From an uncultured virus (IMG/VR IMGVR_UViG_3300046747_000409) (Duplodnaviria; Heunggongvirae; Uroviricota; Caudoviricetes), in the IMG/VR virus record IMGVR_UViG_3300046747_000409: DNA of 64,000 bases; one strand, given 5' to 3'. Below, piece after piece: positions 2 to 17,897 of this stretch. Under the pieces are notes generated by a model. That model saw nothing but the letters and a program-made list of their open reading frames with translations. It was not told the DNA's origin and made no database searches. Both the position numbers and the translations under genes were made by a program. Every line of letters starts with the position of its first letter. Within the stretch, counting starts at the first letter, position 1.

Positions 2-346
2 TTGCGCACCACCGGGACAGCCGGGGGCAAGTACACGCGCTATCTCGAACGCACGGCCCACAAGCCCAAGGCACGAAAGGGTCGCCCTTCGTTCAAGGGC
101 GGTAAACGTGGGGAGTTCCGCGCCTCGCGTGCTCAACACCGCAGGGCGGACTTGGTGTGGGCGGGTCGACACGAGTCAATTCGTAAGCGCTCGCACCGGT
201 CCAAGAACCCCCGCAGCGCCCGCCCCGGTGAGAACGACATCCCCACGGTCGTTGTCGTCCGGAAGGGTAAGGGCCGTCGCAATCCGCCGATCACCCCGGC
301 ACAGGCTCGTACCATCAAGCAGGTCTTGCGGATCCACGGGTACTGA
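2..346 (+). CDS. Arg/Lys-rich basic protein (5' partial)
   Basis: Open from window edge; very basic; SKNPR and RRNPP motifs; stop abuts next ATG (TGAcATG). Confidence 0.65.
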   Translation: MRTTGTAGGKYTRYLERTAHKPKARKGRPSFKGGKRGEFRASRAQHRRADLVWAGRHESIRKRSHRSKNPRSARPGENDIPTVVVVRKGKGRRNPPITPAQARTIKQVLRIHGY

Positions 347-347
347 C

Positions 348-1097
348 ATGGCCGGGCGCCCTCGCCGTCGTGCACGTCTGCTCCGCAACCCCCGAGGCAA
401 AGGGAGGCACCGTACCGGAAGAAAAGCCGGGGCGAATGCCGACCGCTACCTAGCTCGCCACGCCAAGAAGACGGTGGTGAGAAAAGGGCGGCGCACGCTC
501 ACACGTCGTGCCTCCGAAAGCCCCTCTCGCCGCCACCGGCGCATGCTGACGCTGGGGGTCAATCCCACGCGCACCGGTGAACCGACGCGTGGTGAGAAGC
601 GCAAGACCAAGTTCCTCGACCACTTGCGTGCTCTTCGCGAGCGAGGCAAGAAAGCCGAACAGGAGCTGAAGCGCCTGACAGGCCGCGGTCGTGATACTTC
701 GGCTCCGGTGCTCACGGCCGACAAGACCGAGACGCAGCTGGCTCACCCTGGCCACTACGCCGCGGAGCTCACCGCCGATCAGCAGTTCCTGAAAGCCCAG
801 GTCGACGAGATCGACCGGACCATGGCCGACGTGCGCGACCAGATCCGCGGCCTCGGGGATGCGGACGAAGCCCTTGCCGATGAATTGAGTGATCAGCTGG
901 TGAAATTGGCCAAGCAGAGGGCAGCGCTCAAGGCCCCGATCGTCGCAACCAACCCTCGGCGCCGTTGCGTGCTAGGTAGCAGGGGGAAACGGGCCTATAG
1001 CCGTGCGTTGCGACGCTGGTGCCACACTCTACGCTCCAACCCGGCAGGCGTGGGTATGCGAAGTGCGAAGCCGGGGACTCGGCGCCGTCGGCGCTGA
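348..1097 (+). CDS. Basic protein with coiled-coil segment and four xNP motifs; putative virion core protein
   Basis: ATG 348 right after upstream stop; LRNP, GVNP, ATNP, RSNP; heptad region FLKAQVDEID...LAKQRAAL. Confidence 0.7.
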   Translation: MAGRPRRRARLLRNPRGKGRHRTGRKAGANADRYLARHAKKTVVRKGRRTLTRRASESPSRRHRRMLTLGVNPTRTGEPTRGEKRKTKFLDHLRALRERGKKAEQELKRLTGRGRDTSAPVLTADKTETQLAHPGHYAAELTADQQFLKAQVDEIDRTMADVRDQIRGLGDADEALADELSDQLVKLAKQRAALKAPIVATNPRRRCVLGSRGKRAYSRALRRWCHTLRSNPAGVGMRSAKPGTRRRRR

Positions 1098-1186: not shown

Positions 1187-2845
1187 ATGGACTTCAATCG
1201 CCCGCGCATGGTCCCAGCGACCCGCATGATCCACACGTCGCGGCCGGGCATGATTCCTGCCACCTCACGGAAGCTCGTCCCCCAGCTGGCAATCGGGTAT
1301 GGTATCGCCCAGCGCGCCACCGGTACCACGTACGTGAATGCCCGCCCCGAGGACCGATTCGCTGTGATGAGCGGCATGGGTGCCCTGGCAGAGTTCGGTG
1401 ACCTCGCAAACGGTGTCGCGGCTCAGGCAGAGTTCCGGACCCTGCTGGAGACCCACATCAGCGCCAAGGCCGGTCCAGCCTACCTCGCCAACGCCAAGGC
1501 CGCCCCGACGCTGGGTGGCGCAATCGGCATGGCCGCCAGCGCGTTCACCCTCGGTGAAGCCAACGGCCTCGACCCGGTGGCGCAGGCCTCCTGGAATCAG
1601 TGGCGTGCAGCCGCCTCGGGCCCCAACAGCGACTACAACATCTACTGGATGTTCGGCCGCATGGTGCAGATGAACAAGGACGCGCTGACGACCGCCTGGG
1701 TCACCGCCAAACAATCTGGTTGGTGGGACGATGTGACCGCCGCTCAGGCCAGCTTCACGTTGCTCGATTCGAGCACCACCGGCACCACGTGGCTGGGCGG
1801 CACCACGGTCACCAGCAAGCTCGATAACAGCCAGTGGTCCTCCGTGTTTGTGAAGGCCTGGGCCGCACTGCAGAAGGGCGTGAACGGGCAAGTGCTGTCG
1901 CTCACGTATCTCGACGTGTTGGTGAAGGGCATGCTCGCGGCTCCTGCTTCGCGCCGCATGCCGATGTTCCAGCCACCTCCCGGTAACCTGCCCGCGAACG
2001 ACCCGGCCGCCGTGGCGTTCCGCGCCATGTTGAAGCAGTTCGGCTGGAACGACGTCGTGCACGAATGGTACACGTACACGGCGCAGGCCTGGGCTGCTCA
2101 GTCGGATGCTCAGGACTCACAGGATTCGACCTACGCCTCCGTGATCACGGGGCTCAACTACCTCAGCGGCAAAGCGATCTACGACCAGATCAACGCGAAG
2201 CTGCAGGATTACTGGAGCGCACGCACCGATGCGGCGGCACAGCTCAAGGTTTTCGACACTCTTGCGAAGGGGCCTCTCAGTGGACAAATTCCGCAAGCCG
2301 ACACCGCGGCAATGGCCGCAATACGTCAATCCTTCCTGGATACAGACTCGCGCGCCGTTGGTACGCTCACGCCCCTCGGCCTTTGGCCCGCTGGGCAAGC
2401 CCAGGGGGCGGCGGCCCTCAACGGACTCCACGGACTGAACGGCCGGGGGCTCAGTGACCTCGGGTTGGTCCAGGTGATCCTCGCCGGCGCCGTCGCGGTT
2501 GCTGCTCTCGGCGTCGTGGCCTACATCGTCGCGACGATGACCAAGACCGCTCGGGACGCTGCAGCTCAGACCAAGGCCACGACCGACAGCATCCTCGCGA
2601 CCGTCGACGCCCTGAAAGCCAGCTGCACGACCACGTACATGGCCTCAGCCAAGGACGCTCCTGCCAACGCGGCATATCAGGACTGCTTGATGAAGACGAA
2701 GACGCTGACCGACACGATCCCGGATGTTCCGGAGTCGAGCTCGGATCCACTCGGTCTCGGCAAGATCGTCATGCTCGCCGGCATCGCCCTGGTCGGCATC
2801 GTCGCCCTCAGCGCCATGAAGAACAAGAAGTCGTCGGCACCGTGA
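1187..2845 (+). CDS. 552-aa membrane-anchored putative virion protein
   Basis: Long ORF; MSGMG and LNGLHGLNG motifs; internal TM (VILAGAVAVAALGVVAYIV) and C-terminal TM followed by KNKK. Confidence 0.8.
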   Translation: MDFNRPRMVPATRMIHTSRPGMIPATSRKLVPQLAIGYGIAQRATGTTYVNARPEDRFAVMSGMGALAEFGDLANGVAAQAEFRTLLETHISAKAGPAYLANAKAAPTLGGAIGMAASAFTLGEANGLDPVAQASWNQWRAAASGPNSDYNIYWMFGRMVQMNKDALTTAWVTAKQSGWWDDVTAAQASFTLLDSSTTGTTWLGGTTVTSKLDNSQWSSVFVKAWAALQKGVNGQVLSLTYLDVLVKGMLAAPASRRMPMFQPPPGNLPANDPAAVAFRAMLKQFGWNDVVHEWYTYTAQAWAAQSDAQDSQDSTYASVITGLNYLSGKAIYDQINAKLQDYWSARTDAAAQLKVFDTLAKGPLSGQIPQADTAAMAAIRQSFLDTDSRAVGTLTPLGLWPAGQAQGAAALNGLHGLNGRGLSDLGLVQVILAGAVAVAALGVVAYIVATMTKTARDAAAQTKATTDSILATVDALKASCTTTYMASAKDAPANAAYQDCLMKTKTLTDTIPDVPESSSDPLGLGKIVMLAGIALVGIVALSAMKNKKSSAP

Positions 2846-3198
2846 ACGACCCGCTGCTCACGGAAGCGTCTGAAACGCCGATCGCTCCTGATGACGTGTT
2901 GGTGCAATTCAGGGACGGCCCTGAAGCCTCTGCCATATGCGCCCCTGGGGAGATCAGCTGGATGTGGTGGTGCCCTGGCTGCAAGTGTGGCCACTGGACC
3001 CGGACCAAGGGCAGGTCGCCGTGCTGGGGCTGGAACGGCTCGAAGGCGAAACCGACGTTCAGCCCGTCCATCCTGGTCACCTCGCAGAACCGCTGCCACA
3101 GCTTCGTGATCGACGGCGTGATTCAGTTCCTGGGCGACTGCACGCACGAGCTGAAGGGTCAACACGTGCCTATGACGTTGAACAAGGACTGGATCTGA
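2842..3198 (+). CDS. DUF6527-like Cys/His metal-binding protein
   Basis: WWCPGCKCGH, WNG..KPTFSPSILV, CHSFVIDG.IQFLGDCTH.LKGQ pattern; GTGA overlap. Confidence 0.75.
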   Translation: MNDPLLTEASETPIAPDDVLVQFRDGPEASAICAPGEISWMWWCPGCKCGHWTRTKGRSPCWGWNGSKAKPTFSPSILVTSQNRCHSFVIDGVIQFLGDCTHELKGQHVPMTLNKDWI

Positions 3199-3211
3199 CA
3201 TAGGCTCCGGC

Positions 3212-3865
3212 ATGGATGCCTTCGTTCCAGACGCCGACGTTCGCTCCGTATTCGCCAGCAAGGAGCTGGTCGGACTCGCCGGCCTCACCCCCGTTCCCAA
3301 GACGACCGACTTCACCTGTGCCGCCGCTGCCGTGGCGACCTGCCTGCGTTACGTCGGTCAGGTGGCAAACGAATACCAATGCGCCGAGGCGCTCGGTACC
3401 AACCGGGTGGTCGGGGCGACGGCCCCCGACATTCTCAAATACCTGTCAGGCCGCGAACTCTACGCCACCGCCTGGAAGAATTACCCAGTGCGCCGCATGA
3501 TCGAGCGCATCGTCCTGGGCAAGCTCGTCATGGTCGACTGGGGCGACTGGGGCGGACACTGGACGGTCGTGGCTGGTTATGACCCCTCCAGTAATGCGAT
3601 TGTTTTCGCTGATCCGGCGCGGCCTCGGGGTCGCTTCAGTGCCTTCACCCTCGATCATTTCACCCGGTGCTGGGTGCGCCCTGAATCCGAGAATACCGCT
3701 CATCAGGCCCGCCAGTTGGTGATCGACATCGACCGCCCCTCCATCGGCAAGTCGCGGGCCGGGGTCGAGCCTGAACACAAGCACCGCACGGACTTCCGCA
3801 TTCAGGATTGGAACAAAGGCGTGCGCATTCAGCGACGGGCTGCCGTGGGAGCGGCACAGGCCTAG
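3212..3865 (+). CDS. Papain-fold C39-like cysteine peptidase
   Basis: TDFTCAAAAVATCL (catalytic Cys), GGHWTVVAGYD (His), FADPA (Asp). Confidence 0.8.
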   Translation: MDAFVPDADVRSVFASKELVGLAGLTPVPKTTDFTCAAAAVATCLRYVGQVANEYQCAEALGTNRVVGATAPDILKYLSGRELYATAWKNYPVRRMIERIVLGKLVMVDWGDWGGHWTVVAGYDPSSNAIVFADPARPRGRFSAFTLDHFTRCWVRPESENTAHQARQLVIDIDRPSIGKSRAGVEPEHKHRTDFRIQDWNKGVRIQRRAAVGAAQA

Positions 3866-3896
3866 AGCCAAGGCCGGAAGAGGGTACCATAGGCAC

Positions 3897-4655
3897 ATGC
3901 CGCGCCTCCTGTGGATCCTATTGCCGATCGCGCTCCTGCTGACCGGGTGCGGCAATGCTCGGCTTGTGGTCCCCCCACCGCTTCCGCCCCTGGTCGAGAT
4001 TGTGACCCCGAAGACGGCGGCCGAACAGAACGTCGTGGATGCTCAGGCGGAGGTCGACAAGGCCCGTAAAGGTGGCGACGCCCTCACCGTCCTGACGGCC
4101 GAACAGAAGTACGCGCGAGCCGCTGCCAAGCTGGCCTTTCAGCAAGCCAAGGAATGGCAGCAGGTCGACGCCGACAAGACCAAGGAGATCACCGACGAGC
4201 GTAATGCCCGGCGGCAGCTCTTCTTGTACGTGCTCAGCGGCGTGGTGGGCCTCCTGGCCATCTTGGCTGCCGTTGGTGCCTTCGCGTGGCCGACTGCCCG
4301 CCCCATCTTCCGCCCGGTCGCTATTTTCCTAGGCCTCCTGGTTCCTGCTCTGCTGTTCGCGGCATGGCTCGTCCCGTACCTGGAGTGGATCGCCGGCGGC
4401 ATCGGCGTGATCATCATCGGGGTGGGTGGTTGGTTCATGGCCGACAACGAGCGGCGCCACAAGCTGAAGGACCGCACCACCGAGCAAGTGGTCGAGGCGG
4501 TCGGCGACGCGAAGAGGCAGATCCCCGAGTTCAACAACCGGTACAAAGACATCTTCCGCGGATGCATCGACACGGACGTCGACCAGCACCTCGATCTCAC
4601 CAGGGCTCGCCTCGCCGATGATGCGCAGGCCGCCGCACGCAAACTGCTCCACTGA
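3897..4655 (+). CDS. Lipoprotein with coiled coil and about 3 TM helices
   Basis: Signal peptide with lipobox LLTGC; helical charged segment; hydrophobic stretches LFLYVLSGVVGLLAILAAVGAF, AIFLGLLVPALLFAAWLV, WIAGGIGVIIIGVGGWF. Confidence 0.75.
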   Translation: MPRLLWILLPIALLLTGCGNARLVVPPPLPPLVEIVTPKTAAEQNVVDAQAEVDKARKGGDALTVLTAEQKYARAAAKLAFQQAKEWQQVDADKTKEITDERNARRQLFLYVLSGVVGLLAILAAVGAFAWPTARPIFRPVAIFLGLLVPALLFAAWLVPYLEWIAGGIGVIIIGVGGWFMADNERRHKLKDRTTEQVVEAVGDAKRQIPEFNNRYKDIFRGCIDTDVDQHLDLTRARLADDAQAAARKLLH

Positions 4656-4662
4656 GGCCCTC

Positions 4663-6150
4663 ATGCGTCGTCAATCCAACGTTCCTCTGGTCGCCGGTCT
4701 CTCTGCGGGCGTCTATCTCGCTGCCGCGGCCGGAGTGTGGGCGTTCTACAAGTTCGCCCAATCCAGCAGTGGCGTTGAAGGCCTCGGTGCGTTCGGTGGT
4801 CCTCGCGTGATGAAGGCCAAGGGTCGCCGGGTCAAGCAAGCGAAGGCTCGCCGCATCAAACGCGCTGGTGCCGTGGATCGGCGCACCCGCCGGGTGATCG
4901 CCAAGCCGATGAACGGCCTCGAAGGCTTGGGCGATCTGGGTTGGGGCGGGAGTATCGGCAAGGCGGTGAGTGGTGCGGCGAAGGCCGCGACCTCGGCCGT
5001 CTCAACGGTCGCCAAGCCCGTCGCGGCAGTTGCCAAGCCCGTCACCGCGGTCGTCTCATCGGTCGTTAAGCCGGTGGTCGCGGTGGCCAAGCCGGTGCTC
5101 GCCACTGGTGGTCGTACCGTCGGTAACACCGCGACCGTGGTGTACTCCGGCGCAAAGGCACGTGGTCCCGTTGCCCTCGCCAAGCCCCTGGCCGCGGTCG
5201 TGAAGCCGGTCGCTGCGGTCGTCAAACCCGTCGCGGTTGCAGCTAAGCCCTTCACCTCGGTCGTCTCCTCGGTGACCAAGCCGCTCGCCGTGGTGACCAA
5301 ACCAGTCACGTCGGTTGTCTCATCGGTAGCCAAGCCGGTGACCAGTACCATTCAGTCGGCAGCGCCCTACGTCTTCAAGGGCGCTGAGACGATCGCCACG
5401 TCGCCGCTGAAGGTCACGCGCGAGGCCATCCGCCCGGTGAAGCCGCTCAACAAGCTGGTCGGTCACCACCTCGATCGTCCGCTCACGGCCGCCGACAAGG
5501 CCACTCAGCAAGCAACGTTGGTTGCCACCGGCAGCAGCCCGAAAACTCCAGCGGCGGGGACCACGACCACGAACGTCGTCACGCAAACGCAGTACGTGGA
5601 CGCGAGCGGTAACCCGATCACCGAGGCGCAGTACCACGAGCTGATGGCCCACGTCAACGACCCGGTCTACCAGGACGCCAGCGGCAACATCATCACGAAG
5701 GCCCAGTACGACGAGTTGATGGCCCATGCCAACGACCCGGTGTATCAGGACGCCAGCGGTAACACGATCACGAAGGCGCAGTACGACGCACTGATGGCCG
5801 AGTACGCCGCGGCGCAAGCCGCACCACAGACGCAGGTATCTGCTCCTGCCGCCCTGACTCCGACGCCGACCATGCAGGTGGCTGCCCCCGCTTCACAATC
5901 GCAGCAGGTGCCGACGGCGCTCGACCCAACGGCTATGGTACAGGGCGGAAGTGGTGCATCATCGCAGTACTCCTCCAGCGCGCTCCCATCCGACGCTGGG
6001 TCAACGTCGACGGGCTCCAGCTCGATCACGTCGCCCTCGACCGCGATGACCCCGGCCGCAGCTGCTCCGGCTCCTGCAAGTTCGGCATCGAAGTACGCCG
6101 CACTGCTGTTGATTCCACTCGCCATCGGGTTCATGCACAAGGACGGTTGA
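4663..6150 (+). CDS. Repeat-rich membrane protein (N- and C-terminal TM), putative virion protein
   Basis: ATG 4663; VEGLG and LEGLGDLG motifs; KP(V/L)xxVx repeats; 3 x 25-aa repeats; C-terminal TM. Confidence 0.8.
   Translation: MRRQSNVPLVAGLSAGVYLAAAAGVWAFYKFAQSSSGVEGLGAFGGPRVMKAKGRRVKQAKARRIKRAGAVDRRTRRVIAKPMNGLEGLGDLGWGGSIGKAVSGAAKAATSAVSTVAKPVAAVAKPVTAVVSSVVKPVVAVAKPVLATGGRTVGNTATVVYSGAKARGPVALAKPLAAVVKPVAAVVKPVAVAAKPFTSVVSSVTKPLAVVTKPVTSVVSSVAKPVTSTIQSAAPYVFKGAETIATSPLKVTREAIRPVKPLNKLVGHHLDRPLTAADKATQQATLVATGSSPKTPAAGTTTTNVVTQTQYVDASGNPITEAQYHELMAHVNDPVYQDASGNIITKAQYDELMAHANDPVYQDASGNTITKAQYDALMAEYAAAQAAPQTQVSAPAALTPTPTMQVAAPASQSQQVPTALDPTAMVQGGSGASSQYSSSALPSDAGSTSTGSSSITSPSTAMTPAAAAPAPASSASKYAALLLIPLAIGFMHKDG
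5593..5805 (+). repeat. Intragenic tandem repeat, 75-bp period, about 3 copies (YxDASGNxITxAQYxxLMA)
   Basis: Units start 5593, 5668, 5743. Confidence 0.9.
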
Positions 6151-6151
6151 A

Positions 6152-7432
6152 GTGACCTATACCCGCCTCAAGGCCCCAGCTCCTCGCCCTGTCTACGCTC
6201 AGCCGATGTATCGGATGACGCCGGCGGCAGTGCGTCGTGTCGCGGGTCTGGGGTCGCTTGGTCAGGACGTCAGCGAGATCTTCGACAAGCTGACCAGTGA
6301 CATGAAGCAGCAGGCGATCGAACGTGCTGGTGCTCAGCTGGGTCTCTCAGTCGCGCTGAACTCCATCCCAGTGGTCGGGCAGGCGGCTTCGATCGTCCTG
6401 GCGGCGGTCTCGACCCTGGTCGGCGGCATGTACGAGCGCGCTGGAAAAGAGGAGATGGCGAGCTTCCAGGTCGAGTGTAATCAGAAGGTCGCAGCGGCGG
6501 ACCTGATCGTCCAGAACGCGCTGACGGCGGCGATCTCGCAGGAAAAAGACGCCGCCATTCAGCTGGCGATGTCGAGCGATCCGCTGGCCGGTCTTGGCAG
6601 CTACGGAGGCTACGGAGGGACGCGGATGCGCCCCGTCCGTCGTCCCCTGCGCCCCGTAGGCATGGGCGACTTCTGGAGCAACGCCGTAGACGCCGCCAAG
6701 AACTCGGTGCAGACCGTGACGAAGGTGGTTGTGCAGGCCGTGCCGACTCCGGTGACGAAGGCCGTCACCAGGGTAACGGCGGTAGCTGCTCCGGTGGTGA
6801 ACCGGGTGAACACGGTGATTCAGCCAGTGACGTCCAAGGTCAACAGCGACTTGGCTCACAACGCCATCAACCCCCTCAAGCCCGCGCGCGCCATCGTGCA
6901 GCTCGCGACCACCGTCGTTCAGCCCCTCGCGTCGACCGCCGCTTCGATCATCCCAGGTCAGGCGATCTACCAACTCACGCCGCTGGCCCCGATCCTCCTC
7001 GCCGCTCAAGCCGCGTCCAAGGTAGCCTCCTACCTCCCGAGCAACGCCGTCACGGACCTGCTCAAGAAGCCGCAGGAGCAGATCGACCGCGCCTCGGGCC
7101 ACGTTGATGAGGGAATCGATGTAGTGTCGGGCCGCTCCGGGTTGGAATCGGTGCGTGCGGCTATCGAGAAGGCGCGCGCCTTGGTCACGCAGCAGCTCGC
7201 CGATCAGGTGCGCACCAATCTCGCCAACATCGCCTCACCGGAGTACCGGCAGCAATTGCGCATTCAGCTGGCGCAGTTGATCCGCAAGAACATGGCGTTC
7301 CAGATGCTCCAGCCTACCCCCGGCAGCATCACATCACCGGTCACCTCCGTCCCCGCCTTGCCCAAGACCGCTAAGAACTCACTCATCATCGCGGGCGCTG
7401 TGGGCGCTGCCTTCCTCTTCTTTGGCCACTGA
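6152..7432 (+). CDS. C-terminally anchored putative virion protein
   Basis: VAGLG, LAGLG, VGMGD motifs; C-terminal LIIAGAVGAAFLFFGH. Confidence 0.8.
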   Translation: MTYTRLKAPAPRPVYAQPMYRMTPAAVRRVAGLGSLGQDVSEIFDKLTSDMKQQAIERAGAQLGLSVALNSIPVVGQAASIVLAAVSTLVGGMYERAGKEEMASFQVECNQKVAAADLIVQNALTAAISQEKDAAIQLAMSSDPLAGLGSYGGYGGTRMRPVRRPLRPVGMGDFWSNAVDAAKNSVQTVTKVVVQAVPTPVTKAVTRVTAVAAPVVNRVNTVIQPVTSKVNSDLAHNAINPLKPARAIVQLATTVVQPLASTAASIIPGQAIYQLTPLAPILLAAQAASKVASYLPSNAVTDLLKKPQEQIDRASGHVDEGIDVVSGRSGLESVRAAIEKARALVTQQLADQVRTNLANIASPEYRQQLRIQLAQLIRKNMAFQMLQPTPGSITSPVTSVPALPKTAKNSLIIAGAVGAAFLFFGH

Positions 7433-7440
7433 GAGCCCAC

Positions 7441-8019
7441 ATGACTACTCCTCTGATCCAGTCCACGGCGGCGTGGTACAACTCGTTGCCGATGTCGGTG
7501 CAGCAGAAGCTCGCGACTCGCTTGGAGTCGATCTACCGCTCACTGCCTCAAACGCTGCAGTCGAAGTACCAACGTGACGTGATCTCACAGGTCGGCGTCG
7601 CTCCGTTTTCCCCTGCCCTCGACGGCATCAACGGAGGCGGGGGCCTCGGCTGGCTGGAGACCCTCGCCACCACGCTCATCAGCGGCGGTATCTCGCTCGG
7701 CGGTCAGACGATCAACAGCGTGCTCAGCGGCCGGTTGCAGAAAGACCTGCAAGCGAACGCCATCGCCAGCAACGAGCAGATCGCCGCAGCCCAGGCCGCC
7801 GCGTCCAAGCAGGCTCAGGATGCGATCAACGCCGCCCAGGCTGATGCGATTCGCGTCGCTGCGCAGGCGACGGTGATCAAGGCCCAGATCGATGCGGATT
7901 CCGCACAGCAGACCAGCCTCATCAACAGTATCCCCGGTGGCGGCCTCACGTTGCTGGCCGTTGGTGGCGTCGCGGTAGCAGGTATCCTATACGTCGTCCT
8001 GCGAAAGGGCCGCAAATGA
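7441..8019 (+). CDS. C-terminally anchored Ala/Gln-rich protein
   Basis: LDGINGGGGLG; helical AQ-rich region; TM + RKGRK. Confidence 0.8.
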   Translation: MTTPLIQSTAAWYNSLPMSVQQKLATRLESIYRSLPQTLQSKYQRDVISQVGVAPFSPALDGINGGGGLGWLETLATTLISGGISLGGQTINSVLSGRLQKDLQANAIASNEQIAAAQAAASKQAQDAINAAQADAIRVAAQATVIKAQIDADSAQQTSLINSIPGGGLTLLAVGGVAVAGILYVVLRKGRK

Positions 8020-8450
8020 AAATTATGCCATACCCTACTGGGAGAGTCTTCGCTCAACCGCCTCAGCCAGCCCAGGCGCAAGCGTGCCGGTGTCCCGTTG
8101 CTGCTCCTTCGCCTCTGTCGCCAGTCCTCCGTGTTCCGGCTCCCGGAGCGGCTACAAATTGGGCGGCGTTGTTGCAACAAACCAATATAAAACCCAATAA
8201 CCCTCTGCTACTCCCTCGGGTCATGCCTCGCCCGGACCTCAAAGGCCTCGACGACATCCCGCCGGCGATCGTCACCGCGACCGACGAGCCCTTCCGCCTC
8301 GCGCTCGATGAGGGTGCGATCTATATTCAGGGCCAGAAGGTGAACATCGTCGGCGCCCTCGTCAGCGCCCTGGTCGTGAAGACCCTCCTGTTCGGCGGCC
8401 AGCACGCGGCACGTGCGGCGAAGGCCGCGTACAAGCGTGCACGCTCATGA
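8016..8450 (+). CDS. Small membrane protein
   Basis: ATGA overlap; LKGLD; TM then basic tail. Confidence 0.7.
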   Translation: MKIMPYPTGRVFAQPPQPAQAQACRCPVAAPSPLSPVLRVPAPGAATNWAALLQQTNIKPNNPLLLPRVMPRPDLKGLDDIPPAIVTATDEPFRLALDEGAIYIQGQKVNIVGALVSALVVKTLLFGGQHAARAAKAAYKRARS

Positions 8451-8758
8451 CCTACATCACCCCGGACCCGGTCGCCATCCATCAGGACTACCTCCGGAAC
8501 ATCAACGGCGGTCGCCTGCCGAAGTGGGCACGCGTCTTGCAGCCCTCGCCGACGCTGAAGCAGGTTCGTCCCATGATGTCGCCGATGTCCGAGGACTGGC
8601 GTGATGGGCTCCCCGGCGCTGGCGGTGGCGGCAACATCACCAGCCTGACCGGGTGGAGAGACCTCACCCCGCACCAGCGGGCCGCGACCTACGGCGTGGT
8701 GGCTCTCGGTCTCTACTGCTTTGTTCGGACGCTCAACAGTACACGATCCCGGAAATGA
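8447..8758 (+). CDS. Small C-terminally anchored protein
   Basis: ATGA overlap; LPGAG; YGVVALGLYCFV + RSRK. Confidence 0.7.
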   Translation: MTYITPDPVAIHQDYLRNINGGRLPKWARVLQPSPTLKQVRPMMSPMSEDWRDGLPGAGGGGNITSLTGWRDLTPHQRAATYGVVALGLYCFVRTLNSTRSRK

Positions 8759-9345
8759 CCCCATCGGACGCGTTCACTGAAGCCCTCGCCATGGTCCCCA
8801 TGGTGCACCTGCCGGTGACGCAGGGTCAGCGCGTCCTCATCGTCGGCAAAGATGCAGTTCCGGCGGCGATCGTGGCCTTGCGGTACCCGACCACGGTCGA
8901 GGTGGTGATTGTCGATCCGGCTCCTCCGGTGCTGCAAGACAAGCGCGTCCGCACGGTGGCCCGCATGGAAGCCCTCGCTCCCGCCTGGAAGGCTGACCTC
9001 GTGGCCGTGGCGATGCCGGTGATTACGGATTCCCTGGTGCAGGCCGTGTACAACCACCACCGCGCCGACACCGGGGTGGCCGTCTTCGCCCTGGCCCGAG
9101 CGCAGCAGGTTCGGGCCAGCAAGGAACAGCTCCGCAAGCTGTGGTCCTCGGTCCAACCCTACCGCGAGCAGGTGGTCGAGGCCGAGGGCGGGGCGGCGTG
9201 GTTCCTGCTGGCTGGTGATCATGGATTCAAGCGCCACCGCCCGGTCCCGGCGTGGTCCAAGCGGTTGACGGACAAATACCTGCCGGCGCTTTTCACCCTG
9301 GCGAAGGATGAATACGTCCAGGCCTACGGAGGAGCTCATGGCTGA
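8755..9345 (+). CDS. Degenerate spermidine-synthase-like (Rossmann fold) protein
   Basis: EALAMVPMVH..QRVLIVG..ALRYPTTVEVVIVD resembles SpeE EMLxHVP..KRVLIIGGGDG..VLKHPxVExVxxVE; GGGDG motif lost. Confidence 0.6.
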   Translation: MTPSDAFTEALAMVPMVHLPVTQGQRVLIVGKDAVPAAIVALRYPTTVEVVIVDPAPPVLQDKRVRTVARMEALAPAWKADLVAVAMPVITDSLVQAVYNHHRADTGVAVFALARAQQVRASKEQLRKLWSSVQPYREQVVEAEGGAAWFLLAGDHGFKRHRPVPAWSKRLTDKYLPALFTLAKDEYVQAYGGAHG

Positions 9346-9817
9346 TTCCATCCAGGACACGCTCCTGATCTCCGTCGCCAACGTGGCGACCAGCAACCCG
9401 GTCGTGATCGACAAGCGTGCTCAGTTGGCCGCGCTGGCCGAAACCTATTATGAGGCGCTGGATACCTACACCGCCGCCAAACCATGGTTGTTCGCTGCCG
9501 GGCTCCTGGGTGCCCTCCTCTCGGCCGCCGCGGTCACCAAGCGCCGGAAGGTCGGCGAAGCCTGCGTGCTGTACAGCCTGACCGGCGTCGCTTCAGCAGG
9601 GCTCGCCTGGGTTGCCCGGCCTGATGCCCTGCGCAGCGCCCCCACAGCTGCCACGGCCGGTCCTTCCTGGCCTGCTGCCCGTGCGGCGGCCCTTTCCGCT
9701 GCCCACCCTGGTTGGGAAGCAGCCACCTGGGGACGACTGGCAACCGACTTTGGAACGGGTACGATGCTGGCGCAGAACCCCGCTGTTCAGGTACTCCTGA
9801 CGCGCAATACGAAGTGA
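9338..9817 (+). CDS. Two-TM membrane protein
   Basis: GGAGGAG SD before ATG 9338; two hydrophobic segments flanking KRRK. Confidence 0.7.
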   Translation: MADSIQDTLLISVANVATSNPVVIDKRAQLAALAETYYEALDTYTAAKPWLFAAGLLGALLSAAAVTKRRKVGEACVLYSLTGVASAGLAWVARPDALRSAPTAATAGPSWPAARAAALSAAHPGWEAATWGRLATDFGTGTMLAQNPAVQVLLTRNTK

Positions 9818-9823
9818 GACCCC

Positions 9824-10153
9824 ATGCTCGGTAACTACGCTGATCAATTCATGATGGCTCAGAAGGCTGAGCGGGTTCTCGCCATTACCCCAAACGGCGG
9901 TGGCCGCAGCATGCCGCTGAATGACCGCGAACGCGCGGGCAGCGCACATGTGATGATGAAGGCCGGTCTGCAACCCGGTCCTCACTCGCAGGTCTCCTCG
10001 GCCTGGATGCCCGGCATGGGCACCGAACCTGTTCCTCCTGCACCTCCGACCTTCCTGCCCGGCATGAACGGCGTCACGGTCGACACCGGCACGTTGCTGG
10101 GCTTCGGCGCAATCGCCGCCGCGGTCTGGTACTTCGGCTTCCGGAAAGCTTGA
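9824..10153 (+). CDS. Small C-terminally anchored protein
   Basis: MPGMG, LPGMNG; TM + RKA. Confidence 0.75.
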   Translation: MLGNYADQFMMAQKAERVLAITPNGGGRSMPLNDRERAGSAHVMMKAGLQPGPHSQVSSAWMPGMGTEPVPPAPPTFLPGMNGVTVDTGTLLGFGAIAAAVWYFGFRKA

Positions 10154-10163
10154 GTAGATCGAC

Positions 10164-10394
10164 ATGTTTGACTCTCACCTCAGCGGCGACCACGTTGGCT
10201 CTCAGGCGCAAGGGCACGTCAGCACTGCCCTGCCCGGCATGAGTGGTATGGGTGACGATGCTGCCAGCGTCCCAGCCGTTTCCGCGCCGATCCAGCCGAT
10301 CTCGCCCCTGGCGCTCAACCTCGCGCTCCTCACCGGTGCCGCACTGATCGCCTTTCTCTTTTTCCGGGCCATGTCGCGCTCGAAAAAGACCTAA
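10164..10394 (+). CDS. Small C-terminally anchored protein
   Basis: LPGMSGMGD; TM + RSKKT. Confidence 0.75.
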   Translation: MFDSHLSGDHVGSQAQGHVSTALPGMSGMGDDAASVPAVSAPIQPISPLALNLALLTGAALIAFLFFRAMSRSKKT

Positions 10395-10424
10395 CCACTC
10401 CCCATCCCGACAAGGAATCGTCTC

Positions 10425-10733
10425 ATGGCCCATAAGAAGCTCACCCGCCGCCAGAAGTCAGCCAAGAACAAGGCCGCCTTCCGCAAGCGCACCGCCACCA
10501 AGCGTAAGTCGACCAAGCGTCGCTCACGCGTTCGCTCGACCAAGCGTCGGACCTCCAAGAGCCGCGGCCGTCGTGGCGTTCGCCGGACTTCCAGCGCCCG
10601 CAAGAGCTCGCGTCGTGGTGTTCGCCGGTCGACGAAGAGCCGTGCACGCAAGTCCACCGCTCGCCGTGGCCGCAAGAGCTCCGCCCGTCGGTCGACCAAG
10701 CGTCGTTCGACGCGCTCACGCGCTCGTCGCTAA
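10425..10733 (+). CDS. Protamine/histone-H1-like DNA-condensing protein
   Basis: 102 aa almost entirely R/K/S/T/A with repeated RRSTK, RRGVRR; AAGGA upstream. Confidence 0.85.
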   Translation: MAHKKLTRRQKSAKNKAAFRKRTATKRKSTKRRSRVRSTKRRTSKSRGRRGVRRTSSARKSSRRGVRRSTKSRARKSTARRGRKSSARRSTKRRSTRSRARR

Positions 10734-10783
10734 TCGGGTCCAAACCCCGGTTGATCGTTATGCCCCGCGGCTAGTCTCGCATC

Positions 10784-11803
10784 ATGCGCGTGACTTCCGC
10801 GGGGCGTCCTTTTCCTGGCACTACCATTCATAGCGATTCGCGCAAGAACCCGCTGCGGCCCGGGCGGTTCAAGAAGGGCGACGCGGATGCGGTGGTCCGC
10901 AGTTCGCACCTCGGTTACGATTGTTACGTTACGGGGCGTGTGAACGACAGTGGCCGCACCCGCATTGTTCTGCGTACTGGTCGCCTCCCTGCGCACTTTA
11001 CCGCTGATGTGATCGCCCACCTCCCCGCAGAGATGTGGTGGCCTACTCGTGATCACACCGCAGCTCACGCCACCATCGACGCCGTGCTGCAGTTCGATGT
11101 CGGCTCCCTCCTCCGGTTCAAGGACGCCTACCCGGACCACGAGTTCGGCTTCGAGCGGTACATCGAGTTCTGCCAGCGCCGGGCATCTGCTGCACGTGCC
11201 GCCACCCCCGCGCCGCGCCTCGACCAGCCCGTCCGCAGTTCACCTATAGGTGAGCCCTCGAAAGGCGCGCTTCCTGCTCAGCTCTCGCGCTGGCCGTCGG
11301 CGGTCGAGGACGTGGAGAAGCTGTACGCGGTCGACTACGTGGGCTACGTGCTGAAGACCAACCTCGTGACTTTCGAGGATGGGGCATCGGCGCTCAGTGT
11401 TGAGGTGTGGGGACGTGTAGGTGAGGGTCGCCAGCTCTGCAGCCGCGCCTACATCGACCTGATTACCGGCGAATACGAGATCCGCGCACACCACCCTGGC
11501 CGACTGCAGGCGCTCGCCCTGCCTCTCACCTTGCTGCACGACCACCTGGGGATTCGTACCCGAAGTCGTGTTCGAGCGTCGATCAGGCGGATCGACGTGC
11601 CGACGCCGAAACGCGCTCCCGAGCCGGGCCTGCATTCGGTCATGCGCAACAGCCGGGACGTTGAGGGGGCGATCACCGGCGGGGGCAAGCGTTTCACCGA
11701 GGATCTGAGCACCACCGGACGCACCACCCACGGTCGAGCGGTGCCCGACGCTGAGGACGACATCGTTTCGTTCCCCTCAGCGCCCGGTGGCGCCCCTGCC
11801 TGA
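10784..11803 (+). CDS. Hypothetical protein (RKNP motif near N-terminus)
   Basis: 339-aa ORF; TAGTCT-N6-ATG start. Confidence 0.65.
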   Translation: MRVTSAGRPFPGTTIHSDSRKNPLRPGRFKKGDADAVVRSSHLGYDCYVTGRVNDSGRTRIVLRTGRLPAHFTADVIAHLPAEMWWPTRDHTAAHATIDAVLQFDVGSLLRFKDAYPDHEFGFERYIEFCQRRASAARAATPAPRLDQPVRSSPIGEPSKGALPAQLSRWPSAVEDVEKLYAVDYVGYVLKTNLVTFEDGASALSVEVWGRVGEGRQLCSRAYIDLITGEYEIRAHHPGRLQALALPLTLLHDHLGIRTRSRVRASIRRIDVPTPKRAPEPGLHSVMRNSRDVEGAITGGGKRFTEDLSTTGRTTHGRAVPDAEDDIVSFPSAPGGAPA

Positions 11804-11821
11804 ACTGGGTACGATGGGGCC

Positions 11822-12202
11822 ATGCTGGGCCACCTTCCTGAGATCAACCGCGCGGTGCAGGGCATCGGCGTCATCGTCGGCACGCAGCGCCCCTTCGTCG
11901 GCTTCCTGCTCAAGAACTGGCCCCTGACCCTGGTCGCCGGCTTCGCCCTGGTCGCCAAGGGTCGCGAGCGGCACAAGAAGGGCGAGCTGACCACGTACAA
12001 CATCCTCGCTGACGCAGGCCTCGTGCTCAGCCCCCTGGTCGGCCTCGCGCTGATCAACCAGCTCGCTGCTGCGGATCACGCTGCATCGAACGGCCTGCCG
12101 ATCCCGGCGAATCCCATGCAGCCCGGTGCGCAGGCCGCTATTCCAGCGCAGCCCGGTACGAACGGATTCCCTCGGTCGGCTACACTGCAAGGCGGCTGGT
12201 AA
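11822..12202 (+). CDS. Two-TM membrane protein
   Basis: TACGAT-N6-ATG; two hydrophobic segments. Confidence 0.7.
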   Translation: MLGHLPEINRAVQGIGVIVGTQRPFVGFLLKNWPLTLVAGFALVAKGRERHKKGELTTYNILADAGLVLSPLVGLALINQLAAADHAASNGLPIPANPMQPGAQAAIPAQPGTNGFPRSATLQGGW

Positions 12203-12855
12203 TGAAACGCCGTTCCCGCCGCGCACGCAACCCCTTCAACCAGCCCAAACCGGCTGAATGGGCCACCATGTCCAAGAGCCTGCGCAAGGCCTGGAACCGG
12301 AAACACTGGCGCCCGCATGACTACATGGTCGTGGTGCCGTTGAAGCGTTACGCCACCCGGAAGGCCAACCAGCGCGACGGCGGGTCAGGCCGCGGCATGC
12401 TGCAGTTGGCCGCCAAGATCGAGAAGCTGAAGGCCTCGAACCCAGGTCGGGACGTCGAACGCCGCTACAACGAAGCCGTCGCCACCGCCGAGCGTCAGAT
12501 CAGCTCGGTCACGGCTCAGTTCCGCAAGGCCGACGTGTTGGAGCGCAAGCGCCTCCGCAGCGAACGGAAGCGGATCGAGCGTGAGGAGACGGTCAGGCCG
12601 CTGCGCTCGAACCCCCGTGGCCGCCGGCGTAATCCGTCCACCGAGCAGCACCTGATCGAAGCCATCGGCGATTGGTTGCAGGCCGAGGACGAACAGGGTG
12701 CCGTGCGCTTCTACGAAAATATCGAGAACAAGCCGCGGAACCGCCTGCTGATTAAGAGCGTGTGGACCATGGCGCACCGCCTGGGTATCACCACGCGTGA
12801 GCAGCTGGACCGATTCAAGGCCAAGCACCACCGCGAATTGGCCGCACTTCTCTGA
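12202..12855 (+). CDS. Basic protein with four xNP motifs
   Basis: TAATG overlap; ARNP, ASNP, RSNP, RRNP. Confidence 0.75.
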   Translation: MKRRSRRARNPFNQPKPAEWATMSKSLRKAWNRKHWRPHDYMVVVPLKRYATRKANQRDGGSGRGMLQLAAKIEKLKASNPGRDVERRYNEAVATAERQISSVTAQFRKADVLERKRLRSERKRIEREETVRPLRSNPRGRRRNPSTEQHLIEAIGDWLQAEDEQGAVRFYENIENKPRNRLLIKSVWTMAHRLGITTREQLDRFKAKHHRELAALL

Positions 12856-12881
12856 TTCACGGAATCTGGTAGGATACTCCC

Positions 12882-13343
12882 ATGCCGCACCTCGATCCTG
12901 TGACCGACGCTCCTGAGTTCACTGGCCCTTCCCGTGACTGGGCAGCCATCACCGCCAAAGAGCCAGTGTACCGCCAGGAGCGCTTCAACATCCGCCCGCA
13001 GCGGATGCCGATCTCGTTCAAGATGACCGAGCGGCCGAAGGTGACCACGAAGCCGGTGGTGACCATCAACCCGTCACGTGTACCCATTCTGATCCGCAGC
13101 TCGAACAACCGCCCGTCTGAAGCAGGCGAGGGCGTGTCCGGGTCGACGTGGGGCGTCAGTGACCCCGGTCAGTACGATGCGCGCACGCTTGCTGGCGTTG
13201 GTGCTGATCCAGCTGTCGCCGCTGATCCGCTCGCGCAGTCGCCGTACGCGATCGACGACAACCTGCGCGTGAAACTCGTGATCGCTGCAGGTATGGGCCT
13301 CGTGATGGCATACCTTCTCTACAAAGACTCGCGCAAGAAGTAA
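12882..13343 (+). CDS. C-terminally anchored protein
   Basis: TAGGAT-N6-ATG; LAGVG; TM + KDSRKK. Confidence 0.75.
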   Translation: MPHLDPVTDAPEFTGPSRDWAAITAKEPVYRQERFNIRPQRMPISFKMTERPKVTTKPVVTINPSRVPILIRSSNNRPSEAGEGVSGSTWGVSDPGQYDARTLAGVGADPAVAADPLAQSPYAIDDNLRVKLVIAAGMGLVMAYLLYKDSRKK

Positions 13344-14036
13344 TCAGAACAGCTGCTTGTCGCCCTCGGCCACCGGGGGCTTCTTCCCCTTCGGTCCCTT
13401 GCCTTCCGTCCCAGGCGGTGGTCCCAGGTCGCTCTTAGGTGGATCAACCACCGGTGCCGGTGATCCCAGCGGAGCCTGCGGAGCATACCCGGCACCCGGT
13501 GCCGAACCCATACCAGCGGCAGCGCTGATCACGGGCGGGAACAAGGCGCCATTACGCTCACGTGAGAGCACCCACGAGTACTTGCTGACGGGGTTCTCGT
13601 GGCGGCCGAGGGCACTGATGTCACCAAGCGGTTGATCAGCGCCCCAGAGGGCGTCCCGGAAGTTCCAGAAGCAGTCGACCAAGGCCGCCGATCGCGCGAC
13701 GACCATGTCGACGTCCTTCTCGACCATGCCTGAGTTGGTGAGGATCTTGAGGGCCTCGGCGAAGCGTGCCTTGTCACCCGAGAGCGTGCCCGTGGGTAGG
13801 CCAATCGCGAGTACCTGACCGAGCTCGTCGCCCTTCGATTTGGTGTCGAGGACATCCAGGACGAGCTTGATCAGCTGACCGTTCGAGGGGAACACGAGGA
13901 CCACGACCAGACAGGCTCCGGCGCCCTCCTCCAACCATCCCGGTGCGCGTGCCTCCATGCCCAGATCCCATGACGGGATGTGCAGGAGGTCGAGCGAGCT
14001 GATGAAGCCCACCGGGTTGCGCGTGAGCAGGTACAT
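13344..14036 (-). CDS. Hypothetical protein with Pro/Gly-rich tail
   Basis: 230 aa; start overlaps stop of 14036..16105; converges on 12882..13343. Confidence 0.7.
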   Translation of the reverse strand: MYLLTRNPVGFISSLDLLHIPSWDLGMEARAPGWLEEGAGACLVVVLVFPSNGQLIKLVLDVLDTKSKGDELGQVLAIGLPTGTLSGDKARFAEALKILTNSGMVEKDVDMVVARSAALVDCFWNFRDALWGADQPLGDISALGRHENPVSKYSWVLSRERNGALFPPVISAAAGMGSAPGAGYAPQAPLGSPAPVVDPPKSDLGPPPGTEGKGPKGKKPPVAEGDKQLF

Positions 14037-17234: not shown

Positions 17235-17897
17235 ATGCAGAGGATCATGCATCAGGTGTGGGTAGGTCCGTATACCATGCCCAAACGGGAGCGCACGTTC
17301 GTAGACCGAATGCGTGCGCTCCATCCCACCTGGGAGCATCGGATGTGGTCGGATGGTACCCTTCCGCCAATGTCTGATTGGGTACGGGAGCGCTTCGAGT
17401 GGCGCATGTCTCAGCGCGAGTACGCCTTCGCTGCTGACGTGCTTCGTGTGGCCGCGGTGTACGCTATCGGAGGCATCTACCTGGACGTGGACACGGAGCC
17501 TCTACGAGAGATTACCGACCTCCATTTAGACTCATTCGCTGCCGTATTCCGACATCATCGTGATCACGATCTGACTCTCTCCAGTGACTTCATTGGAATG
17601 ACCGCTGGGCACCCTTTAGGTGCCTGCCTTCTGGAATCCATGCGTGCTCCAGCCTACGACTTCGGACCTCACTGGCTTGGGTACACCGTTCGATCGTTTT
17701 TCGAGCTAGCGCGAGATGCTGGCCACGCACAGCTTCGCGCTGCTTTCAACACCGAATGCATGCGCTACATGCCAAGCGACGAAGGTGATGCAGAGCGGCT
17801 TCAGGATGTGTCCTGGACGAAGTACTTCGCGAATCACGCCCTCTTTTCATGGCATCCCGACAACGTGAAAAAATTCGCATCCGGAGATTATGAGTAA
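17235..17897 (+). CDS. Glycosyltransferase, GT32/DXD (OCH1-like)
   Basis: IMHQVWVG, HPTWEHRMW, AADVLR..AVY..GGIYLDVD. Confidence 0.85.
   Translation: MQRIMHQVWVGPYTMPKRERTFVDRMRALHPTWEHRMWSDGTLPPMSDWVRERFEWRMSQREYAFAADVLRVAAVYAIGGIYLDVDTEPLREITDLHLDSFAAVFRHHRDHDLTLSSDFIGMTAGHPLGACLLESMRAPAYDFGPHWLGYTVRSFFELARDAGHAQLRAAFNTECMRYMPSDEGDAERLQDVSWTKYFANHALFSWHPDNVKKFASGDYE

Follow-up and report, generated by a model that had tools for sequence, protein, structure and literature searches.

A conserved glycine motif in tail-anchored proteins of an uncultured phage lineage, with a neighbouring C39-type peptidase as candidate enzyme

The stretch of DNA analysed here (the window, 64 kb) comes from the uncultured virus IMGVR_UViG_3300046747_000409 in IMG/VR and is part of a 117,691-bp contig. 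Near its start lies a block of 18 genes, positions 1187-13343, whose products include nine proteins that end in a transmembrane (TM) helix and one papain-fold peptidase (Table 1; genes are named by start position). A sequence-only reading of the block had pointed out that the tail-anchored proteins share short glycine motifs and that a C39-like protease lies among them, and had proposed that a bacterial virus matures its membrane and core proteins by proteolysis at these motifs, as adenoviruses and poxviruses do. We describe the motif, the peptidase, and their relatives, and weigh trimming at the motif against the other roles that the same genes could have.

Gene content identifies the window as viral DNA. 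From 16 kb onward it carries replication and nucleotide genes, i.e. a family A DNA polymerase (PolA), a helicase, a PD-(D/E)XK nuclease, a DUF5906 primase-like protein, a phrog_6247 'topoisomerase', and MazG-like, NADAR, methyltransferase, and DUF932 proteins. PHROG matches were found for window proteins including PolA, the helicase, the nuclease, DUF5906, MazG, and NADAR. The nearest cultured relatives of the polymerase, at 23-30% identity, are those of Pseudanabaena and Leptolyngbya phages of 125-143 kb. Base composition is 58-66% G+C, nearly all genes are on the plus strand, and no tRNA genes were found in the 64-kb window. The lineage is an uncultured large phage, probably tailed, and its host is a bacterium, since 3897-4655 carries a lipobox.

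Tail-anchored proteins in a conserved module

The nine open reading frames (ORFs) said to end in a TM helix, most with basic residues after it, largely deserve that description. All are present as open frames, with third-position G+C (GC3) of 0.71-0.82. When a 15-residue Kyte-Doolittle window is moved over the last 40 residues, seven of the nine ends score at least the threshold of 1.8 and two are borderline (8447 at 1.79 and 9824 at 1.71); with a stricter 19-residue window at 1.6 or above, five pass. Two or more Lys/Arg residues follow the hydrophobic segment in seven of them, one does so in 4618/4663, and none in 6152. By comparison, 0 of the 35 other window proteins have a hydrophobic segment 20 or fewer residues from the C-terminus, the nearest case being 14036-16105 on the minus strand (score 1.64, then 27 non-basic residues). 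A sortase-type sorting signal (LPXTG-like motif, TM segment, and basic tail) was considered and rejected: signal peptides are absent, and the Pfam scans returned no sortase family. An N-terminal hydrophobic segment occurs in one of the nine proteins, 4618/4663.

Comparison with metagenome loci indicates that the block is a module kept across an uncultured phage lineage. We fetched 11 such loci with an alignment of the 1187 family (14 homologues that are 41-84% identical to the window protein and come from contigs as long as 128 kb) and compared the block proteins with them by tblastn. Five loci (L001, L003, L006, L008, and L009) have the common order 0108-1187-C39-(3897)-7441-4618like-8016-6152-8653-9308-9824-10164-10425-10784-11822. 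The C39-like gene adjoins the 1187 homologue on its downstream side in all eight loci that extend past that homologue, 0108 homologues lie directly upstream of it in L006, L008, and L009, and each relative has 7-10 ORFs that end in a hydrophobic segment and a basic tail. No relatives were found in IMG/VR (searched with three single proteins and two alignments), in species-genome contigs, or in 50,697 GenBank phage records (searched with block DNA, 1187, and 8653).

In the 10 kb upstream of its module, L008 encodes two proteins with tailspike-type PHROG matches, and one of the two has pectate-lyase-like beta-helix Pfam domains. These genes bear on the kind of particle that the lineage makes, to which we return below.

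A glycine motif at module borders

All 13 motif strings quoted in the sequence-only reading are found in the ORFs named for them, and both the predicted enrichment in the block and the predicted conservation in homologues are borne out. Enrichment was measured against residue shuffles (n=500). In the nine tail-anchored proteins, [LIMV]xGxG occurs 13 times, compared with 3.4 ± 1.7 after shuffling (0/500 reach 13), and the narrower [LIMV]xG[LIMV]G occurs 8 times versus 0.8. The counts for [LIMV]xGxG are 4 versus 2.0 in the other nine block proteins and 12 versus 12.3, i.e. chance level, in the 35 other window proteins. A weak enrichment is seen for [LIMV]xGG (7 versus 3.3, with 20/500 shuffles reaching 7). 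The motif was defined post hoc on these very proteins, and the independent checks are the rest-of-window control and the orthologues. The latter were assessed in L001, L003, L006, and L008, leaving out the near-duplicates L004, L009, and L010: 29 ORFs with a C-terminal TM segment, that part removed, hold 36 motifs versus 12.8 (0/500), and 45 other ORFs hold 25 versus 15.5 (2/500).

From 71 instances we derived the consensus [GA]-[LVM]-x-G-[LM]-G-[ADE]-L-G-D, with LPGMG as a variant. In the 1187 family, a leader of 2 to 60 residues that cannot be aligned ends in L-x-G-L-G-[DE]-L-G-D; 14 of 15 members have ΦxGΦG (Φ, hydrophobic) and all 15 have the closing G-D (G71-D72), and the motif falls within the first 41 residues in all nine 1187 homologues of the loci. 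In the AlphaFold (AF2) model of 1187, pLDDT is below 50 at residues 1-71 and 413-432, so the predicted fold begins at residue 72, directly at the motif's end. The second disordered stretch, which contains LNGLHGLNGRGLSDLG, precedes the first TM helix, and at this second site P0009, P0011, and P0013 have variable Arg-rich insertions between GLG units.

Other families repeat this arrangement. When 6152 is aligned with five homologues, G-x-L-G-[DEQ] marks the border between leader and body and GLG recurs at a second position, and in 6152 itself an Arg-rich 12-mer lies between GLGSYGGYGG and VGMGD. Likewise, 43 residues with 16 K/R separate VEGLG from LEGLG in 4618/4663. The 7441 family (eight homologues) keeps [AV]DG[LIMY]G and GLG(x)W, and the 10164 pair keeps [ML][SA]GMG[DE], its L001 homologue reading LAGMGED. 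In a 12-member alignment of the 9824 family, each protein has two to five [LM]PGM[GSN] units after a 50-residue head and before the anchor, with P63, G64, G80, and G83 invariant.

Because it is kept where its flanks vary, and across several families, the motif is on these alignments a short linear motif conserved at the borders of modules (between leader and body, between body and anchor, and around basic inserts). That it is functional is well supported. Its border placement is typical of processing sites, and a docking signal fits too. Type IV pilin-like and Tat/Sec leaders were rejected, as no hydrophobic core follows the motif.

The C39-type peptidase and its relatives

The sequence-only reading was right to place a C39-like Cys-His-Asp peptidase inside the block: family scores, fold, and catalytic residues indicate that 3212-3865 is a stand-alone C39-type papain-fold peptidase of clan CA. 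It passes the cut-offs of PF13529 Peptidase_C39_2 (26.9 bits, cut-off 24) and Peptidase_C70 (22.5 bits, cut-off 19) and stays under that of PF03412 Peptidase_C39 (19.2 bits, cut-off 22); its close homologues P0017 and P0018 carry both PF13529 and PF03412. The best Foldseek matches of its model (pLDDT 78.6) in the PDB are LahT150 (6mpz), ComA (3k8u/5xe8), and PCAT1, with E of 6.3e-7 to 1e-5 and TMt of 0.79-0.81. Catalytic Cys36, His116, and Asp134 are present in the window protein, which also has a C-terminal extension of ~60 aa. A conserved N-terminal strand, L-x-G-L-x-G-[LF] at residues 17-26, is confidently folded in the model; G21 and G24 of this strand are found in 25 of 30 close members versus 2 of 124 further representatives, and it is kept even in catalytically dead copies. 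The family is large, an exhaustive profile search giving 1,871 matches at E of 0.001 or better and 17 at 1e-30 or better.

Two other assignments were tried and dropped. As a PA2778 family peptidase (NF033920), 3212-3865 scores 15.4 bits against a cut-off of 150, and the PA2779 partner NF033919 had no match in the 16 other block proteins scanned (all but 10425-10733). Nor is it a member of FapD (NCBIfam).

The best structural match places the enzyme with the C39 peptidase domains of PCAT/AMS ABC exporters (LahT150 6mpz, ComA 3k8u/5xe8, and PCAT1 4ry2), which have the same papain-like fold, the same Cys-His-Asp triad, and a Gly-containing recognition site after a hydrophobic residue. Unlike these domains, the window enzyme stands alone and is apparently cytoplasmic, with no ABC transporter found in the window, and a Lys replaces the oxyanion Gln. 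Its candidate site is ΦxGΦG(D/E), whereas theirs is Φ-x-G-G, and its candidate substrates are many large membrane-anchored proteins rather than small peptides. A double-glycine bacteriocin system was therefore rejected, the 53 window proteins containing no ABC transporter domain, 149 relatives of the peptidase having none among the families listed, and the motif being ΦxGΦG, not Φ-x-G-G.

Those relatives come from a Pfam scan of 149 of the 150 listed representatives of the family profile, with at most five families per protein listed in part of the scan. Most are single-domain proteins. Some are fused to a portal (P0085 and P0116), to Mu F (P0116, P0120, and P0134), or to the ADP-ribosyltransferase of polyvalent proteins, ART-PolyVal (P0042, P0044, and P0052); the other accessory domains are SLH (three), TPR with POTRA (one), and DUF11, DUF5661, and DUF4388 (one each). 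Wall- or peptidoglycan-binding, lysozyme, amidase, and ABC-transporter domains occur in 0/149 among the families listed. Portal, MuF, and polyvalent proteins are parts of tailed-phage heads or cargo in them, so these partners favour a head-associated processing role. In both portal fusions, the linker also contains PPGMGE or SGAGDE at 25-30 residues N-terminal to the C39 domain. No similar sequence is found at that place in the three ART-PolyVal and two MuF fusions, and the linker motif was not used as evidence, there being too few cases.

Built-in peptidases have been proposed to process head-packaged, injected effector proteins (PMC5512222). Stand-alone C39-like genes are common in tailed-phage sequence clusters; we found no paper that gives them, or the portal/MuF fusions, a particle role, and no description of such fusions. 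The mentions of 'C39' in the Jabs preprint are cysteine residue numbers, not the peptidase.

The fold cannot by itself separate leader-peptidase and endolysin functions, and the C39-like protein could be a peptidoglycan endopeptidase (an endolysin or virion-associated lysin of the LysA N5 type), with 3897-4655 as a spanin-like partner and the glycine motifs unrelated. When the model is searched against BFVD, a Gordonia phage endolysin, mycobacteriophage Lysin A, and cyanophage 'lysozyme' proteins come out best (E 1e-6 to 3e-4). For the LysA N5 domain, Table 1 of PMC3314691 gives a C39-like peptidase of B. anthracis as the match, 3erv ranks tenth among the PDB structural matches, and C39_2 is the best Pfam family. 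From its sequence, 3897-4655 resembles a unimolecular spanin in architecture, with a lipobox (LIGC in the L001 homologue) and TM segments. The Pfam scans of window ORFs gave no other lysin, and the position after tailspike genes is one where lysis cassettes often lie.

Several observations speak against lysis, however. The protein has no PHROG match at E of 0.1 or better and one weak tblastn match in the 50,697 phage records, and among its 149 relatives seven have a portal, MuF, or ART-PolyVal domain, compared with none that have a listed wall-binding or lysin domain. The PDB matches with highest target coverage are leader peptidases, at a TMt of 0.80 versus 0.46-0.55 for PeiR and 3erv. If the protein were the only endolysin, loss of the triad in a third of lineages would be surprising, and the glycine motif would be left unexplained. 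We therefore consider a lysis role unlikely.

Trimming, docking, and the particle

Our preferred reading, held tentatively and with somewhat less than an even chance, is that the module encodes proteins that accompany the phage DNA and are trimmed at the motif, with the C39-type peptidase as the candidate enzyme. The set that would travel with the DNA comprises about nine C-terminal-TM proteins with a basic tail, one lipoprotein with TM segments, three Arg-rich DNA-binding-type proteins, and one C39-type peptidase. The motif would be the recognition site for trimming, through which leaders and basic spacers would be cut away and soluble domains could be detached from their anchors. For the phage of the window, the candidate enzyme is the adjoining C39-type peptidase, which would act in trans, either in the cytoplasm or within the head. 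Cleavage at the motif is plausible because the motif lies at borders and around basic spacers and a leader-type peptidase adjoins. We infer the virion or ejected location, the cleavage itself, the scissile bond, and the identity of the cutting enzyme.

The earlier proposal of proteolytic maturation in a bacterial virus thus holds up in part. In its favour are the viral DNA, the conserved module, the border motif, the leader-peptidase fold, and the paired motifs around basic stretches, for which adenovirus pre-Mu offers an analogy. The points that weigh against trimming by this enzyme are as follows. Lys30 replaces the oxyanion Gln, six residues before the catalytic Cys; 18 of 30 close members have Gln there, as do 114 of 124 further representatives. 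Cys and His are both present in 19 of the 30 close members, with Cys missing from ten, His from six, and both from five (one of the ten, P0040, is truncated, and another, P0037, has a Cys one position earlier in another alignment). Dead copies occur in L001, L007, L008, and L009, Cys and His both being lost in L001, and loci with dead copies still keep motifs in their 1187, 6152, 7441, 9824, and 10164 homologues, so the motif is independent of this enzyme's activity. This repeated loss of catalytic residues with the motif kept is the unexplained point. The motif is also not a canonical Gly-Gly at P2-P1, and the usual S1/S2 pockets of C39 enzymes would not accommodate a Leu or Met flanked by glycines. 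Together, the dead homologues, Lys30, and the non-canonical residue between the glycines weaken the case for this peptidase as the cutter. The endolysin fold matches are about equally good. P0011 and P0013 have predicted starts that precede the motif by 5 and 2 residues, so that hardly anything would be there to trim, although these starts may be miscalled. Finally, the virion location is suggested only by gene order in one relative and by distant fusions. A predicted complex of peptidase residues 1-160 with 1187 residues 40-100 scored 0.01, had no controls, and weighs neither way.

Another enzyme may have taken over from the dead C39-like copy in some lineages, since L001, whose C39-like gene is dead, carries a motif-bearing transglutaminase-core protein. 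This protein (L001:11401-12789, papain fold) has an intact Cys/His/Asp-type core and ends in three GGALPGMG units, a TM helix, and an RSKRK tail. It has no homologue in the window.

Alternatively, the motif could be a docking or loading peptide that binds a common partner, i.e. the capsid inner face, the portal, or the C39-like protein as an adaptor even if dead. Encapsulin targeting peptides and the T4 capsid-targeting sequence are analogues. This rival is serious because it accounts for both the dead homologues and the variable copy number: the motif is kept where the C39-like protein has lost Cys and His, and two to five copies in the 9824 family suit avidity. It also agrees with the position of the motif in disordered segments and with the two 1187 homologues that start almost at it. 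The inactive C39-like domain of HlyB reportedly binds its Gly-rich substrate. Encapsulin targeting peptides, which have the consensus DGSLGIGSLKG and bind through two hydrophobic residues separated by Gly (PMC7925596), are likewise short Gly/Leu motifs in disordered stretches, and their consensus shows the G-L-G-D-L-G pattern. They differ in being C-terminal and followed by Lys/Arg, whereas the motifs here are mostly N-terminal or internal and followed by Asp/Glu, and the likeness is a five-residue pattern that could be chance. Docking also sits less well with motifs that lie at borders and are paired around hypervariable basic inserts, as excised spacers look. We give it a modest chance.

The adenovirus analogy bears on a further possibility, a bacterial virus with an internal membrane whose membrane and core proteins are matured at adenain-type sites, convergent with adenoviruses and poxviruses. 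Adenain (MEROPS C5, clan CE) recognises the consensus (M/L/I)xGx-G and trims core and membrane-lytic precursors, excising a basic peptide between two sites. LAGL-G and MSGM-G here fit that consensus, and basic peptides are flanked by motifs. Furthermore, 12 of the 18 block proteins have TM segments, and packaged DNA could lie against the basic C-terminal tails and the three protamine-like proteins. The term 'adenain-like' is nevertheless apt for the motif only: the enzyme has no fold or family relation to adenain (Pfam C39_2, C70, and C39 only), and the host here is bacterial. Membership of C5 was rejected, as there is no C5 among the Pfam hits at E of 0.1 or better and the named structural hits are all clan CA.

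A membrane-containing virion, which the earlier account had implied, finds no support in the relatives, one of which (L008) has tailspike-like beta-helix genes directly upstream of the module. The replication genes are like those of tailed phages, and, among multi-domain relatives of the peptidase, the nearest carry portal and MuF, which belong to tailed-phage heads. Among known membrane-containing phages, genomes are several-fold smaller. We consider convergence of this kind very unlikely, and we rate just as low its fullest form, in which a bacterial virus of ~118 kb builds a particle with tail-anchored and protamine-like proteins, matured by a clan CA peptidase at ΦxGΦG with Arg-rich peptides excised between paired sites. 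The tailspike-like genes in L008 and the portal/MuF/ART-PolyVal fusions are better explained by a tailed phage that packages proteins in its head or ejects them than by a membrane-containing virion.

Trimming of head proteins has precedents in tailed phages. In SPN3US/phiKZ-type giant phages and in T4, head-internal proteins lose propeptides at a short consensus by the action of prohead protease, and prohead proteases are serine enzymes of the herpesvirus-assemblin/T4 gp21 kind that cut after Glu. The candidate here is instead a clan CA cysteine peptidase with a Gly-based motif and a putative head location. For SPN3US, a bolus of ejection proteins has been described (PMC5694885). In polyvalent proteins, MuF or portal serves to package effector and structural domains, and release by a built-in peptidase was proposed (Iyer et al. 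2017, PMC5512222). Relatives of 3212-3865 show the same arrangement in their fusions to portal, MuF, and ART-PolyVal, whereas in the window the peptidase is a separate gene and its candidate substrates are separate proteins. The peptidases named in PMC5512222 are zincin-like, assemblin-like, DD, and LonC, and the terms 'C39' and 'papain-like' did not turn up when its text was searched.

What is new here is the syntenic block in 11 loci, the motif conserved against variable flanks, and the portal/MuF/ART-PolyVal fusions of distant relatives. At present, particle proteomics is the only way to find proteins ejected with phage DNA. Should the motif prove to be a processing or loading signal, the module would provide a sequence rule for recognising proteins carried into the cell with the DNA, and a bacteriocin-leader-type cysteine peptidase would join the enzymes of phage particle maturation.

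Other genes of the block and its surroundings

Beyond the motif-bearing families, the block holds several conserved proteins of other kinds and some that are particular to this lineage (Table 1).

Table 1. Genes of the block and the gene preceding it (positions in the window).
Position	Strand	Product	Features and evidence
3..1097	+	Arg-rich protein (label 0108), coiled-coil C-terminal half	81 K/R in 329 aa; carries IRGLGD; open at window 5' end
1187..2845	+	552-aa protein	disordered basic/Pro leader 1-71, motif MSGMG..FGD 61-72, then helical body; C-terminal part with LNGLHGLNGRGLSDLG glycine stretch 411-427, TM hairpin 430-448 + 522-540, basic tail
2842..3198	+	small Cys-rich protein, DUF6527 / phrog_3362	Pfam 42.4 bits, PHROG E 2.2e-27
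3212..3865	+	putative stand-alone C39-type papain-fold cysteine peptidase	Pfam, model, catalytic columns
3897..4655	+	lipoprotein-type signal (LLLTGC), ~90-aa helical region, three TM segments, cytoplasmic tail	sequence, TM scan
4663..6150	+	N-terminal TM, VEGLG, LEGLGDLG, KPV-type repeats, three 25-aa repeats, hydrophobic C-terminal end	alternative start 4618
6152..7432	+	426-aa tail-anchored protein	leader, VAGLGSLGQD, body, LAGLGSYGGYGG, Arg-rich 12-mer, VGMGD, C-terminal TM
7441..8019	+	192-aa tail-anchored protein	LDGING..GGLGW mid-protein, IPGGG just before TM, tail RKGRK
8016..8450	+	144-aa protein	Pro-rich leader, LKGLD, conserved FRLALDEG, TM, basic tail
8447..8758	+	103-aa protein	LPGAGGGG, hydrophobic C-terminal end
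8755..9345	+	soluble, Rossmann-like protein, without motif	best conserved of the module, 62% identity to L001
9338..9817	+	conserved protein, one internal TM, without motif	longer reading starts 9308; GGAGGAG before ATG at 9338
9824..10153	+	109-aa protein	conserved 50-aa N-terminal domain, MPGMG + LPGMN units, TM, RKA
10164..10394	+	76-aa protein	LPGMSGMGDD, TM, basic tail RAMSRSKKT
10425..10733	+	protamine-like protein	50 K/R in 102 residues, zero acidic residues
10784..11803	+	339-aa soluble conserved protein, invariant His/Asp/Cys/Glu columns	
11822..12202	+	126-aa protein, one TM	kept in L008, L009
12202..12855	+	217-aa basic protein, 53 K/R	
12882..13343	+	153-aa protein	LAGVGADP, TM, tail YKDSRKK

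Structure searches said little about the conserved proteins. A Foldseek search with the whole-protein model of 1187, its domains not folded separately, gave no PDB match at E of 0.001 or better, and VIA-align returned generic long-helix matches only, with Z below 10. Profile searches against PDB sequences with the 1187, 8653, and 10784 families gave nothing significant, and 10784-11803 has no Pfam, PHROG, or PDB sequence match. For 8755-9345, the sole PDB sequence matches are spermidine synthases, at a non-significant E of 0.4; a polyamine enzyme would here stand beside protamine-like proteins. Such proteins (10425-10733, and also 3-1097 and 12202-12855) are unusual for a tailed phage. Homologues of 10425 occur in L001 and L006, with Arg-rich ORFs at the equivalent place in L003, L008, and L009, and 12202-12855 has no homologue in the loci by tblastn.

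Some features belong to the window's own lineage. The protein 2842-3198 has no tblastn match in the 11 loci, which marks its gene as an insert specific to that lineage. Gene order also differs: the window has 4618-6152-7441-8016-8447, compared with 7441-4618like-8016-6152 in the relatives, and 8447-8758 begins with MTYITPD, the N-terminus of 6152 homologues in the relatives. Because 8447 carries this 6152-type start and the order has changed, the sequences suggest that a rearrangement in the window lineage divided or duplicated the 6152 head.

ORF 4663-6150 has internal repeats (window 4990-5234 and 5598-5799), consisting of short AKPVxxV-type repeats and 2.7 copies of a 75-base unit that encodes the 25-aa sequence YQDASGNxITKAQYDxLMAHxNDPV. 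The C-terminal part of this protein and a YxDxxGNxI(T/S)xAQY repeat are kept in L003, L006, and L009.

Two opposite-strand genes at 13344-16105 (-) bound the block, and tblastn found no homologues of them across the metagenome loci. A 689-aa product within this region is an acidic, Glu/Arg-rich coiled coil (113 D/E and 84 K/R) that weakly matches a head-maturation-protease PHROG (E 0.0066), probably via low complexity. After the block, 17235-18586 holds two glycosyltransferase-like genes, one matching Gly_transf_sug (41.5 bits, with a DXD motif) and one matching GT9 at its cut-off.

Three copies of GTAnnAT with an ATG after a six-base gap are present (3884-3899, 11809-11824, and 12869-12884), versus 0.35 expected, each copy being at the start of a block gene (3897, 11822, and 12882). 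At 1187, CTACGAT stands at equal spacing (1171-1189), and other genes have GGAG-type sites. GTAnnAT resembles a -10-type element from which transcripts without a leader, or with a very short one, would start.

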